Below are positions 4,512 through 7,359 of a stretch of 52,170 bases of DNA, in pieces (the stretch's first letter is position 1; every line of letters begins with the position of its first letter). The notes under the pieces are model-generated. The model made no database searches. It was not told the origin of the DNA and saw only the letters and a program-made list of their open reading frames with translations. Origin of the DNA: Alphaproteobacteria bacterium (GTDB lineage: Bacteria > Desulfobacterota > Binatia > UBA12015); contig JAFMJW010000005.1 of NCBI GenBank assembly GCA_017853315.1, positions 1 to 52,170 on the forward strand. Reading direction: 5' to 3'. The translations under genes were made by a program, and so were the position numbers.

Positions 4512-5930
4512 TCAGGACGGCCGGTCGGGGATGCCGAGCTTGTCCATGCGGTACTTCAGGATGCGTCTCGTCGTGCCGAGCCGCTCCGCGGTGCGCGTCT
4601 GGTTCCAGTCGCAGCGGGCGAGCGCCTCGCGGAGGATGGCCCGCTCGAAGTCGTCCACGGCCTCGGAGAGCGATCGCTCTCCGCGCAGCACCGCCTCGCC
4701 GCGATCGTCGTGTCGCGGCATGGCACTCGTCCGCATCGGCTCGGGGAGCTCCTCGGGGCGCACCGGCCCGCCCGTGCCGAGGATGAACAGCCGCTCGACC
4801 AGGTTCTCGAGCTCGCGGACGTTGCCCGGCCAGCGGTAGCGCTCGAGCACGGCCACCGCCTCGGGCGAGAACGGGCGCTCGACCACCCCGAGCTCGCCCG
4901 CCTTCTCGCGCGCGAAGTGGCGCAGGAGCAGCGGAATGTCCTCGCGGCGCGCGCGCAGCGGCGGGAGCGCGAGCGAGACGACCGCGAGGCGGTAGAAGAG
5001 GTCCCCGCGGAAGGCTCCCTCGGCGACCGCCTGCTCGAGGTCGCGGTTGGTCGCCGCGACGATCCGGACGTCGACCGAGACGGGCTTGGTGCCACCCACG
5101 CGCATGAGTTCGCCGGTCTCGATCACCCGCAGCATCTTCGCCTGGAGGGCCGGGTGCATCTCGCCGATCTCGTCGAGGAAGATCGTCGAGCCGTGGGCGA
5201 GCTCGAAGTGCCCCACCTTGCGGGCGTCCGCGCCGGTGAAAGCACCGCGCTCGTGGCCGAAGAGCTCGCTCTCGAGCAGGTTCTCGGGGATGGCGGCGCA
5301 GTTGATGGCGGTCATCGGGAGCGCCGATCGCGGGCTCTGGTGGTGGAGCGCGCGTGCGATGAGCTCCTTGCCGGTCCCGCTCTCGCCGGTCACGAGCACC
5401 GTGGTCCTCTGCGGGGCCACCATCGCGACGGTGCGGAAGATCGGCTGCATCGCGGCGCTGCGGCCCACGATGTTGCCGAGCTGGTAGCGCCGTCCGACCT
5501 CCGCCCGCAGCTCCTCGACCTCGCGCTGCAGGGCCGCGGTCCGGCTCGCGTTGTGGACGACGGCCCGCAGCTCGTCGAGGTCGAAGGGCTTCTGCACGTA
5601 GTCGAACGCGCCGAGCTTCATCGCGGTCACGGCGGTCTTGAGCGTGCGCGTCGCCGTGAGCATGACGACCGGCAGCTCCGGGTGCCGGCCGCGCAGCCGC
5701 TCGAGCACCGCGAGGCCGTCCATCCCCGGCATCAGGATGTCGAGGAGCACGACGTCGGGGCGCGCCTCGGCGGCGAGCGCGAGCGCGCGTTCGCCGTTCT
5801 CGGCCTGCACGACCTCGAAGCCGTCGCGCAGCACGAGGCGCAGCGACTCGCGCACGCCGAGCTCGTCGTCGACGACGAGCACGCGCGGGCGTCGCGGGCC
5901 GCCCTCTTCAGGCGTCGCGTCGGAGGCCAT
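4512..5930 (-). CDS. NtrC/AtoC-family sigma54-dependent response regulator (REC-AAA+-Fis HTH)
   Basis: REC (VVDDE, LLDILMP, MLTA, QKPF); [68 protein letters not shown]. Confidence 0.95.
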   Translation of the reverse strand: MASDATPEEGGPRRPRVLVVDDELGVRESLRLVLRDGFEVVQAENGERALALAAEARPDVVLLDILMPGMDGLAVLERLRGRHPELPVVMLTATRTLKTAVTAMKLGAFDYVQKPFDLDELRAVVHNASRTAALQREVEELRAEVGRRYQLGNIVGRSAAMQPIFRTVAMVAPQRTTVLVTGESGTGKELIARALHHQSPRSALPMTAINCAAIPENLLESELFGHERGAFTGADARKVGHFELAHGSTIFLDEIGEMHPALQAKMLRVIETGELMRVGGTKPVSVDVRIVAATNRDLEQAVAEGAFRGDLFYRLAVVSLALPPLRARREDIPLLLRHFAREKAGELGVVERPFSPEAVAVLERYRWPGNVRELENLVERLFILGTGGPVRPEELPEPMRTSAMPRHDDRGEAVLRGERSLSEAVDDFERAILREALARCDWNQTRTAERLGTTRRILKYRMDKLGIPDRPS

Positions 5931-7359
5931 CTCGTCCGGCGTGGCGTTGGCCGGCCCGCGCGGCGGGACGTGCCGCCTCGGCCCCGGGGAAGCGGATCTC
6001 GACGAGCCGCCGCCCGTCCTCCTCGCGCGAGACGAGCGAGGCGCCGCCGTGGGCGAGCGCGCCGCGGGCCAGCAGCAGGGGCAGCGGGAGGTCGTCGTCG
6101 AGCCCGGTCACGCCGCGCAGGTGGCTCGTCGCGCCGGCTTCCGGGAGCCGGAGGGAGAGCGCGTCGCCGTGGACCAGGACCGCGAGCGTCCCCTGCGGTT
6201 CGATCGTCTCGACGACGTGGCGGGCGACGGCGCCCAGCGCGGCCCGCAAACGTGGCTCGTCCGCGACCGCGACCAGCCGCGCGCCCGGCTCGACGTCGAG
6301 CGAGCAGTCGTTGCCGGCGCGGGCCGCCTGCGCCTCGGAGAGTGCGTCGCGCAGCACCGCAACGACCTCGATCGTGTCGGGATCCGGCGGCGCGAACCGG
6401 GAGAACGCGAGGATGTCCTCCAGCGTGTCGTCCATCCGGGTGATCGCTTCCTCGGTCAGGTCGCGGAAGCGCGCGAGGTCGGCGGGGTCGCTCGCGAGCT
6501 GGGCGACGCTCTGCACGAAGGTTCGCACGGTGACGAGCGGGTTCTTGATGCGATGGGCGAGTTCGACGGCGATCGCCTCGCTGCCCACGCCGGCGACCGC
6601 CCCGGTGCCGTCCGAAGCCCGCTCCCCCGCGGGATCGTCGCGGCGCGCTTCTCTCGCGAGGCGTGTCGCTTCACGCGCGCTCGCCGTCCCGGCGACCGGC
6701 GCCCAGCGAAGGTCGTCCGCGTCGACCAGCGGGCCCTCGACCTCGACCAGCGTGCGAGCGAGCACCCCGTCGAGCTCCGCCGCGTCACCCGGCCAGTCGT
6801 GGTCGAGCAGCGCATCGAGCGCCGCGGAAGAGAGGGCCGGGGCCTCGCGTCCGAGGTCCGCCGCGAGGGCGGCGACCCGGGCGCGCGCGATCTCGGCGAG
6901 GTCCGAGCCGGCGCGCGCGAGCGACGGCGTGCGCACCGTGATCGTGGTGACGAGCGCCCAGAGTTCCGGGCGAAGAGTCTCGCGCAGCGCGTCCACGTCC
7001 GCGAGGCTCGCCGAGACGAGGCGCGGTCCGTCGACGCCGCCGTCGAGCAGCCGCAGGAGCGCGGCCTGGGCGTCGTCGTCGAGACGATCGATGCCGTCCA
7101 CGGCGAGCGTGCAGCGCGGCGACGTCGCGGCGCGGATCAGGCCGGCCAGGAGTCCGTCCCTCGAGCCGAGGAGGTCGACCTGCACCAGGCGGTCGCGGCG
7201 ACTCGCCGTGTGGATCGAGGCCGCGATGCGGTCGAAGGCCGGGCCGCAGCAGTCGAGGCAGAGCACCGGAAGAGAGGAGGGCGCGACCCTCTCGAGGGTG
7301 CGGGCCGCTGCAGGCGGGAGGAGCCGCTGGGCCGGGAGGCTCTGGCGACGGGCGTTCAT
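5908..7359 (-). CDS. Fusion of a degenerate sigma54-activator AAA+ domain with HisKA and a degenerate HATPase
   Basis: ATG at 7359 (ATGA overlap). SSLPVL, TLAVDGIDRLDDDAQAALLRLL, PRLVSAS, LSSAALDALLDHDWPGDAAELDGVLAR (bEBP scaffold with no Walker A or GAFTGA), then ELAHRIKNPLVTVRTF...EEAITRMDDTLEDILAFSR (DHp). Confidence 0.8.
   Translation of the reverse strand: MNARRQSLPAQRLLPPAAARTLERVAPSSLPVLCLDCCGPAFDRIAASIHTASRRDRLVQVDLLGSRDGLLAGLIRAATSPRCTLAVDGIDRLDDDAQAALLRLLDGGVDGPRLVSASLADVDALRETLRPELWALVTTITVRTPSLARAGSDLAEIARARVAALAADLGREAPALSSAALDALLDHDWPGDAAELDGVLARTLVEVEGPLVDADDLRWAPVAGTASAREATRLAREARRDDPAGERASDGTGAVAGVGSEAIAVELAHRIKNPLVTVRTFVQSVAQLASDPADLARFRDLTEEAITRMDDTLEDILAFSRFAPPDPDTIEVVAVLRDALSEAQAARAGNDCSLDVEPGARLVAVADEPRLRAALGAVARHVVETIEPQGTLAVLVHGDALSLRLPEAGATSHLRGVTGLDDDLPLPLLLARGALAHGGASLVSREEDGRRLVEIRFPGAEAARPAARAGQRHAGRDGLRRDA

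Follow-up and report, generated by a model that had tools for sequence, protein, structure and literature searches.

An inactive sigma-54 activator domain fused to an inactive histidine kinase beside an NtrC-type activator in a Binatia genome

The window analysed here is a stretch of 52,170 nucleotides (contig JAFMJW010000005.1 of assembly GCA_017853315.1, assigned to the class Binatia in the GTDB lineage), and the gene under study is the open reading frame (ORF) at 5908-7359 on its minus strand, next to a gene for an intact NtrC-type activator. Its product, hereafter the target, is a genuine, conserved signalling protein in which an inactive activator motor domain, of the AAA+ type found in bacterial enhancer-binding proteins (bEBPs), precedes an inactive sensor kinase, composed of a dimerization and histidine phosphotransfer (DHp) domain and of a domain resembling the catalytic and ATP-binding (CA) domain of kinases. 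Two-component signalling usually relies on a kinase and a regulator; here, dead copies of both are merged in one chain, and the fusion has remained next to a working NtrC in a whole class of uncultured bacteria (metagenome-assembled genomes, MAGs, labelled Binatia). The target probably holds the adjacent sigma-54 activator in check. At the level of sequence and fold, the double pseudo-enzyme proposed in the initial annotation of this DNA is a fair description, catalytic residues having been lost in both halves.

Architecture of the fusion protein

The gene and its domains, delimited with the help of an AlphaFold2 model and its predicted local distance difference test (pLDDT) values, are as follows.

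5908..7359, minus strand: target gene, encoding pseudo-AAA+, lid, linker, DHp and pseudo-CA in this order (basis: translation, Pfam, homologues, AlphaFold2 and fold matches)
6910..7299, minus strand: bEBP-type AAA+ alpha/beta subdomain, residues 21-150, with LCLDCCGPAF for Walker A, Walker B D88-G89, and the L1/GAFTGA and L2 loops deleted
6694..6909, minus strand: AAA+ lid, residues 151-222, sensor-II Arg lost (AAA_lid_14 and motif survey)
6586..6693, minus strand: linker, residues 223-258, poorly conserved and mostly of low confidence (pLDDT; identity 0.18)
6394..6585, minus strand: HisKA DHp domain, residues 259-322, with His269 (codon 6553-6555), Arg270 at the following position (H+1) and Asn273 at H+4 (Pfam HisKA)
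5986..6393, minus strand: CA-like Bergerat-fold domain, residues 323-458, without N, G1 and G2 boxes (hhalign; VIA match to MprB)

The ORF is translated into 483 residues without any stop, and all the motifs quoted in the initial annotation are present in this translation (LPVLCLDCCGPAF at residues 30-42, VDGIDRL..QAALLRLL at 87-105, HDWPGDAAEL at 187-196 and ELAHRIKNPL at 266-275). The start at the ATG at 7359 is supported because the N-termini of the homologues coincide with that position and because this ATG overlaps the stop of a conserved upstream ORF of 122 residues (ATGA; the small ORF ends at 7356). For the same reasons, the longest open frame, which extends up to 7818 and would encode 636 residues, was rejected as a gene. 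At the other end, the last 23 nucleotides of the target gene overlap the start of the NtrC/AtoC-type activator gene (4512-5930).

Two Pfam models scored above their cut-offs, AAA_lid_14 (32.9 bits, cut-off 27, residues 152-228) and HisKA (29.2 bits, cut-off 26.9, residues 267-322). Both had been expected together with Sigma54_activat, but the latter reached only 12.7 bits (cut-off 20.2), and Sigma54_activ_2 remained slightly below its own cut-off (23.5 bits against 25, residues 19-147). The full-length protein matched neither HTH_8 nor HATPase_c at E≤1, the C-terminal half alone did not match HATPase_c at E≤10, and no NCBIfam model came near its cut-off. The AlphaFold2 model, based on a 74-row alignment, has a mean pLDDT of 87.9 and a predicted template modelling score of 0.61, with disorder in part of the linker (residues 239-255, pLDDT below 50) and in the C-terminal tail. 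Mean pairwise identity among 11 close homologues is highest in the DHp domain (0.79), followed by the AAA+ alpha/beta subdomain (0.65), the lid (0.55), the CA-like domain (0.51) and the linker (0.18), and three homologues (L007, L008, L012) carry insertions of about 100 residues in the linker region.

The attribution of the N-terminal half to the bEBP scaffold was well supported by structural comparison, so that the initial annotation escapes refutation by a missing structural match to bEBP AAA+. VIA-align of the model gave FlrC as the best match, over residues 10-221 (6lua_A, Z 18.8, root mean square deviation 5.4, 212 residues aligned); bEBP AAA+ domains occupied 45 of the first 50 rows, ranks 1-45 included, with Z values of 17-19 over about 210 residues, and Foldseek placed the same region on bEBPs. 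A profile built from the 11 homologues aligned with FlrC at E 4e-18, and the gaps of this alignment coincide precisely with the GAFTGA (L1) and pre-sensor-I (L2) insertions. Walker A is indeed replaced, the P-loop position reading LCLDCCGPAF instead of GxxGxGK, and the lack of GAFTGA and of a helix-turn-helix (HTH) noticed in the initial annotation was recovered in the motif survey, in the FlrC alignment and in the Pfam search; the GAFTGA pattern was found in none of the 161 family and search proteins. Walker B is D88-G89 in all 11 homologues, and the catalytic Glu is absent. In the stretch corresponding to FRxDLxxRL, the second Arg is replaced by Ala135 in 10 of the 11, and the lid motif reads WPGDAAEL against the canonical WPGNVREL. 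The target thus shares with bEBPs such as NtrC1, PspF, FlrC and VpsR the AAA+ fold and lid, the Walker B Asp, Gln98 and the WPG motif, and differs from them in having lost Walker A, the catalytic Glu, L1/GAFTGA, L2, the sensor-II Arg and the HTH, and in being followed by a DHp-CA module. Binding of ATP and of DNA is retained in GAFTGA-less bEBPs such as VpsR.

With 37 of 130 columns invariant, the AAA+ alpha/beta subdomain remains well conserved despite the loss of its catalytic residues, and has therefore been selected for something besides ATP hydrolysis. Redox or metal sensing by the CLDCC motif, as proposed in the initial annotation, found no support in this conservation: Cys34, at a buried beta-1 position, is the only one of the three cysteines invariant in the 11 homologues, Cys37 being Cys in seven and Ser in four of them, and Cys38 occurring only in the window protein (Phe, His or Tyr in the others). 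We also compared the family profile with the AAA+ proteins of the same genome and obtained 185 bits for the adjacent NtrC and 193, 184 and 183 bits for three others; with four near-equal best matches, these scores do not single out the adjacent NtrC as the gene whose duplication gave rise to the AAA+ half.

In the C-terminal half, the phosphoacceptor His and the Asn at H+4 are invariant in all 74 aligned family members, and Pro274 is invariant alongside them. The Arg at H+1 is correctly reported for this protein; it does not characterize the clade, in which this position is Arg in 5 and Gln in 6 of the 11 close homologues and appears to be relaxed rather than a selected Arg. Histidine kinases cover residues 264-460 of the model (4u7n, Z 15.1; MprB CA domain, Z 14.9, root mean square deviation 2.2, 128 residues aligned in VIA), and hhalign matched the target family with four canonical kinases over residues 266-470 (98.4 %, E 1e-14). 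In this alignment, the two Asn positions of the N box are Ala and His/Tyr381; the Asp of G1 corresponds to Glu407, with Gly409 kept and the second Gly lost; the G-x-G-L-G-L of G2 corresponds to D-L-P-L-P-L, and the ATP lid is shorter. The absence of N and G boxes noticed at the outset was thus recovered. From these losses, we strongly infer that the target does not bind ATP. A set of clade-specific invariant residues (E407, G409, H413, L414, R415, G416, G419) is located where the ATP lid would be. The target resembles NtrB/AtoS-type HisKA kinases by its AH-x-(I/L)-(K/R)-N-P-L H-box and its CA fold, and differs from them by the Arg or Gln at H+1, the lost boxes, the short lid and a chain devoid of sensor or transmembrane domain.

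HWE/HisKA_2 kinases have an H-R-x-K-N H-box, in which Arg at H+1 is native. We rejected membership of the target in these families, the scores being below the cut-offs (HWE_HK, 19.2 bits against 22.8; HisKA_2, 12 bits against 22.3) and the Arg being found in only 5 of the 11 homologues.

Distribution and operon context

A word-indexed search recovered 10 other full-length proteins of 466-488 residues, 47-70 % identical to the target, all of them with PF25601 and PF00512. An exhaustive search among 50 %-identity representatives gave 7313 matches at E≤1e-3, mostly generic kinases and activators, of which 216 remained at E≤1e-10 and 17 at E≤1e-30. Applying this last threshold to whole genomes, we found a match in 17 of the 19 other genomes of the same family, in 78 of 201 genomes of the class (47 of 89 genera) and in 13 of 401 genomes of the phylum sample (the class and phylum counts include G000, which the family count leaves out), so that the fusion is not unique to this assembly, a possibility raised in the initial annotation. 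All matches below 1e-100 were inside the window's own family, and the window genome (398 contigs, 95 % complete) has a single copy. The records of the related loci are mostly titled 'Candidatus Binatia' or 'Deltaproteobacteria bacterium' MAG; two of them (L002 and L004, 63 % and 45 % identity, same gene order) are titled Klebsiella pneumoniae and Enterobacteriaceae, names at odds with what these loci contain, which looks like mislabelled MAG taxonomy.

Outside the close clade, most matches are 560-630 residues long, with about 120 additional N-terminal residues that align with the receiver (REC) domain of NtrC. Because the position of the phosphorylatable Asp is mostly occupied by Ala, Ser, Gly or Glu, we consider this extra domain as a pseudo-receiver. 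These long forms thus display the order pseudo-receiver, AAA+, DHp, dead CA, and the window protein is a short, lineage-specific form of a class-wide family with a pseudo-receiver in front. The long forms keep Glu at H+1 (AHE(F/L)(K/R)NP), and the close clade reads AH(Q/R/H)(I/L/M)KNP, with P0019, which has Glu, as the sole exception. Of the 55 aligned rows that do not belong to the short-form clade (P0028 onward), 32 keep Walker A (GExGxGK), which is absent in that clade; the catalytic Walker B Glu survives almost nowhere across the wider family, and the CA boxes are missing throughout. Among 43 relatives scanned with Pfam at E≤0.001, 41 matched AAA_lid_14 and 42 HisKA, most of them with a partial Sigma54_activat, and HATPase_c gave one match, below its cut-off.

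The homologues bear only automatic names in databases ('sigma 54-interacting transcriptional regulator' or 'histidine kinase dimerization/phospho-acceptor domain-containing protein'), and our literature searches, whose coverage leaves out subscription journals, yielded no description of a fusion between a bEBP AAA+ domain and HisKA. Each part of the protein taken by itself is familiar, and there are earlier examples of pseudokinases, of histidine phosphotransferases and of kinase-like anti-activators. Two unrelated fusions (P0147 and P0127) were found among the weak matches of the exhaustive search, a protein of 833 residues with phage-portal, HTH_17 and sigma-54 AAA+ domains and an AAA+/HisKA/glycosyltransferase-9 protein of 1040 residues; these could be other unusual architectures, or fusions created by gene calling.

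Three genes accompany the target in the window.

4512..5930, minus strand: intact NtrC/AtoC-type activator, REC-AAA+-HTH_8 (Sigma54_activat 233 bits, Response_reg 112.7, HTH_8 45.9)
3198..4292, minus strand: REC-HisKA protein with a canonical H-box, SHEFRTPL (Pfam), and a CA domain without N, G1 and G2 boxes in this lineage
7356..7724, minus strand: small protein of 122 residues with two hydrophobic stretches, predicted membrane helices (by eye), and ATGA overlap with the target gene

The adjacency to NtrC pointed out in the initial annotation is conserved: a family member was located directly upstream of an orthologue of the window NtrC in all 24 loci considered, 13 of them L002-L014 and 11 from other families of the class (L035-L045), L001 being too short to judge and L046 duplicating a counted locus. 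The NtrC orthologues of these loci are 55-85 % identical to the window NtrC, and the target evolves faster than its neighbour (37-70 % identity, against 61-85 % for NtrC). In 14 NtrC orthologues, D21, D22, D64, T92, K114 and the Walker A stretch G182-E189 are invariant, and the GAFTGA stretch is mostly so. The REC-HisKA gene directly follows NtrC in 21 of the 24 loci; it lies about 5 kb further in L007 and L012, and L005 ends too early. Its product in the window keeps a phosphorylatable receiver, gave no match to HATPase_c, and is a second kinase-dead transmitter in the operon. The small protein belongs to no known family, the Protein Atlas giving unnamed clusters only, and resembles the sensing membrane hairpin of a classical kinase, here made as a polypeptide of its own. 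A homologue precedes the target gene in 11 short-form loci and none was found in L009, L013, L014 and L035-L045 (14 loci).

The module appears to have been rewired in the lineage of the window. A canonical soluble kinase is encoded just upstream of the family member in L013, L009, L041 and L044 (N box NVVLNAIEA, G1 DSGEGV, G2 GNGLGL), and the downstream REC-kinase retains its N, G1 and G2 boxes in L009, L013, L014 and most of L035-L045. The window clade differs in four respects: the canonical kinase is missing, the small membrane gene has been added, the ATP boxes of the REC-HisKA protein have been lost and the target has Gln or Arg at H+1. The residue at H+1 is Glu in all 13 compared loci whose operon REC-kinase keeps the three boxes, and Gln or Arg where they are degenerate. 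The operon of the window lineage retains no ATP-binding kinase domain, and both DHp His and both receiver Asp are kept.

Proposed role and competing explanations

The reading that we favour, which we hold tentatively and put at slightly less than an even chance, is that the target, itself devoid of kinase activity, would serve the adjacent NtrC as a phosphatase or phosphotransfer partner, acting through His269 and Asn273 and tethered or regulated by its pseudo-AAA+ half. It would be a soluble partner of the co-operonic sigma-54 activator, with a C-terminal HisKA transmitter predicted to be unable to bind ATP and therefore to autophosphorylate, while retaining the phosphoacceptor His269 and the presumably phosphatase-determining Asn273. 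Its DHp domain would dock onto the NtrC receiver and take off phosphoryl groups, or exchange them reversibly through His269, so that the target would behave as a natural kinase-minus/phosphatase-plus transmitter. The bEBP-like AAA+ shell, expected to make neither ATP binding nor sigma-54 contact, would serve as a protein-protein module; it would most likely contact the AAA+ domain of NtrC, so that the target would act inside activator oligomers or in opposition to them. The translationally coupled small membrane protein would probably provide the input in this lineage, and the phosphodonor for NtrC would have to lie outside the operon.

The rule invoked in the initial annotation is stated by Willett and Kirby (2012; PMC3510030), according to whom the acid at H+1 is needed for kinase activity and Thr or Asn at H+4 for phosphatase activity; the target, with its H+1 acid lost and its H+4 Asn kept, corresponds to the kinase-minus/phosphatase-plus pattern given there. 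Docking onto the NtrC receiver is suggested by the beginning of the DHp domain. The H-box and helix 1 of the target family read AH(E/Q/R)(I/L)(K/R)NPLVTV(R/K)TF, and the canonical kinases encoded upstream in L013 and L009 read AHEIRNPLVSVRTF, a near match. Two other NtrB-type kinases of the window genome differ after NPL (NPLSGMRGA and NPLGIISNA), and the REC-HisKA protein reads SHEFRTPLHAIVGY in this region. Since these helix-1 positions select the receiver and the residues of the target resemble those of a canonical kinase flanking the same NtrC, the target may dock the NtrC receiver as a cognate kinase would.

For the other half, we modelled the complex between residues 140-400 of NtrC and residues 1-238 of the target in three runs with 3 controls. 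The scores were 0.43, 0.32 and 0.34 (median 0.34), against 0.00 for the best control; the runs agreed in at least 94 % of the contacts, and the partners had a pLDDT of at least 79. In the benchmark, 58 of 80 solved complexes and 2 of 110 mismatched pairs attained the mark; only 7 of those 80 complexes, along with both mismatched pairs, attained it with a score of 0.60 or less. This lends weak support to the docking of the target AAA+ domain onto that of NtrC and raises its odds only slightly. The docking into a bEBP ring proposed in the initial annotation thus gained from the pass over the controls and suffered from the resemblance of the model to already solved bEBP rings.

Several observations weigh against the favoured role. 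The complex scores fall in a weak band, where most models are wrong unless there was good prior reason to expect the pair, and bEBP AAA+ rings have been solved so many times that the predictor may have reproduced known ring contacts. Three other AAA+ proteins of the same genome match the family profile about as well as the adjacent NtrC does, and in the distant relative L022 (27 % identity) no bEBP gene was found over 8 kb on the upstream side and 3.3 kb on the downstream side. The helix-1 specificity positions are taken from the literature, and docking is argued by inference only; phosphatase activity, phosphotransfer and binding are likewise deduced from sequence. The correlation between H+1 and the kinase boxes probably corresponds to one evolutionary event and hence does not count as independent support. 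The strongly conserved E-x-G..HLRG motif of the dead ATP lid finds no explanation in the favoured model. Finally, the long forms keep Glu at H+1 despite their own dead CA, which suggests that their His can be phosphorylated in trans and favours phosphotransfer over a pure phosphatase for the family as a whole.

This last point leads to the closest rival, a phosphotransferase comparable to ChpT or Spo0B, in which His269 would stand in the middle of a relay leading from the receiver of the REC-HisKA protein, or from a hybrid kinase encoded elsewhere, to the receiver of NtrC, with net activation of NtrC. ChpT is a dimeric phosphotransferase similar to kinases according to PMC3433190. In sequence and fold, ChpT, Spo0B and the pseudokinase DivL resemble the target in having a DHp dimerization domain with a CA-like domain that does not make phosphohistidine from ATP, and DivL (4q20_B) was among the Foldseek matches. 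The combination of a DHp domain with a CA-like domain devoid of ATP boxes, the invariance of the His in 74 of 74 relatives and the presence in the operon of two phosphorylatable receivers and two DHp domains are all consistent with a relay. The Glu kept at H+1 by long forms encoded beside an intact REC-kinase would also fit a His loaded in trans, and the sigma-54 promoter predicted before the REC-HisKA gene (see below) would close a feedback loop. We nevertheless regard such a shuttle as rather unlikely: no ATP-binding kinase is left in the operon of the window lineage to feed the relay, the invariant Asn at H+4 is expected of a phosphatase and unneeded for a shuttle. No ChpT or Spo0B chain appeared among the listed Foldseek and VIA matches of the full-length model, which says little about homology since the AAA+ half fills these lists. 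ChpT and Spo0B have no AAA+ module, are not partners of sigma-54 activators, and show no sequence match with the target.

Alternatively, the target could dispense with phosphochemistry and be a stoichiometric anti-activator or poison subunit, its pseudo-AAA+ domain capping NtrC or co-assembling with it and blocking the ATPase or the engagement of sigma-54, or else forming obligate mixed rings. Conservation of the AAA+ alpha/beta subdomain without its catalytic residues, loss of the second Arg finger (Ala135 in 10 of 11 homologues) and the AAA-AAA model all point in this direction, and both variants have precedents: NifL sequesters NifA (PMC12998190), and HrpR and HrpS form a hetero-hexamer with partial degeneration of the paralogues (PMC3105312). 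The latter pair shows that degenerating bEBP paralogues can co-assemble; both are DNA-binding activators, unlike the target. NifL can be likened to the target in being derived from a kinase and in controlling a sigma-54 activator by binding and not by kinase activity. Unlike the target, it has PAS sensors and no AAA+ domain; NifL also has a nucleotide-binding GHKL domain. This explanation leaves aside the invariance of His269, Asn273 and Pro274 and the conservation of the DHp domain (0.79), and the binding it requires is only modelled, with a weak score that may recall solved rings; we consider it unlikely. We find it quite improbable that the target is instead an atypical active kinase and the real phosphodonor of NtrC, with a divergent CA binding ATP in a non-canonical way or with a His phosphorylated by the CA of another kinase in a heterodimer. 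The invariant E407-x-G409...H413-L-R415-G416..G419 at the G1/ATP-lid site, where Glu407 aligns with the Asp of G1, would fit, no other DHp domain with such a helix-1 pattern was seen in the same genome, an Arg at H+1 is usual in HWE/HisKA_2 kinases, and Nla6S of Myxococcus is reportedly a kinase with an atypical ATPase domain. Both Asn of the N box and all glycines of G2 are lost, however, with a shorter lid, the Arg at H+1 is not conserved (5 Arg and 6 Gln of 11), HWE_HK stays at 19.2 bits, under its cut-off of 22.8, and the loss of the H+1 Glu coincides with that of the ATP boxes in the operon. We attach practically no probability to an error of annotation or assembly, in which a frameshift or read-through would have fused two genes, or to a decaying pseudogene. 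High G+C content does yield many long spurious frames, and catalytic motifs are lost in both halves, but independent assemblies share the full-length architecture, length, domains and gene order without stops, and homologues and synteny thus exclude a read-through fusion.

The favoured role as a kinase-dead partner of NtrC can be extended into a bolder proposal, which we advance as speculative and rather unlikely to hold in full. The family would be a chimera of dead copies of both partners, the pseudo-receiver and AAA+ of the activator and the DHp-CA of its kinase, binding NtrC bivalently (DHp to receiver and pseudo-AAA+ to AAA+) and capping or joining the ring, so as to couple its assembly mechanically to dephosphorylation or phosphotransfer. 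If so, this would be a new class of bEBP regulators conserved across a whole bacterial class, and the target would be the only transmitter of a kinase-free operon in the window lineage, with an input from a two-helix membrane protein. Were the favoured role itself true, we would have a natural kinase-minus/phosphatase-plus transmitter, perhaps the first sigma-54 activator found to be regulated by a pseudo-AAA+ subunit, and a lineage in which the whole His-Asp module has lost every ATP-binding kinase domain with its His and Asp sites kept.

Promoter and further neighbouring genes

The remaining features surround the signalling module.

4308..4322, minus strand: putative sigma-54-type promoter TGGCAC-N5-GTGC, 16-30 nucleotides upstream of the REC-HisKA start
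2480..3187, minus strand: conserved ORF after the REC-HisKA gene, without Pfam or NCBIfam match (conserved in 6 loci by tblastn)
1192-2391, minus strand: cofG, FO synthase subunit (NCBIfam TIGR03550, 412 bits, cut-off 213)
2-1195, minus strand: cofH, FO synthase subunit, running off the window (NCBIfam TIGR03551, 479 bits, cut-off 374)
7754..9229, plus strand: divergent second bEBP, AAA+ and HTH_8 (Pfam, conserved position), true start uncertain

A sigma-54-type match (TGGCAC-N5-nTGC) with intact GG/GC was found 30-52 nucleotides upstream of the REC-HisKA gene, with variable spacers, in all 11 regions compared (the window, L002-L004, L006, L008-L011, L013 and L014). Over the whole window, the pattern occurred 24 times for 27.6 expected, thus without excess over chance, and none was found on the minus strand upstream of the operon of the small membrane protein and the target at up to 2 mismatches. 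Given the conservation of this putative promoter and the presence of rpoN in the window genome, this activator or the neighbouring one probably targets the REC-HisKA gene, and may also target the ORF and cofG/cofH that follow it. The two cof genes are syntenic with the signalling module across the class, being located downstream in most loci. FO synthase catalyses the first committed steps to the F420 chromophore, and this neighbourhood is a hint at what the system may regulate; together with the conserved promoter link, it suggests what the system controls.

For the second bEBP, no receiver was detected with Pfam within the window, and matches to its close relatives begin only at about residue 153. 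The orthologue present in L005-L007 and L010-L012 aligns with NtrC from the receiver onward, and this domain appears to have disappeared in the same lineage.

The intergenic region between NtrC and the REC-HisKA gene contains, in its AT-richer middle, a nested palindrome (TGCACG..ACGTTC..GAACGT..CGTGCA, 4409-4445), which is a candidate binding site for the activator; short GC palindromes are, however, frequent here by chance. It is partly kept in L002, and related GTAC/GCAC-N6-GTAC/GTGC elements are found in L006, L010 and L011.

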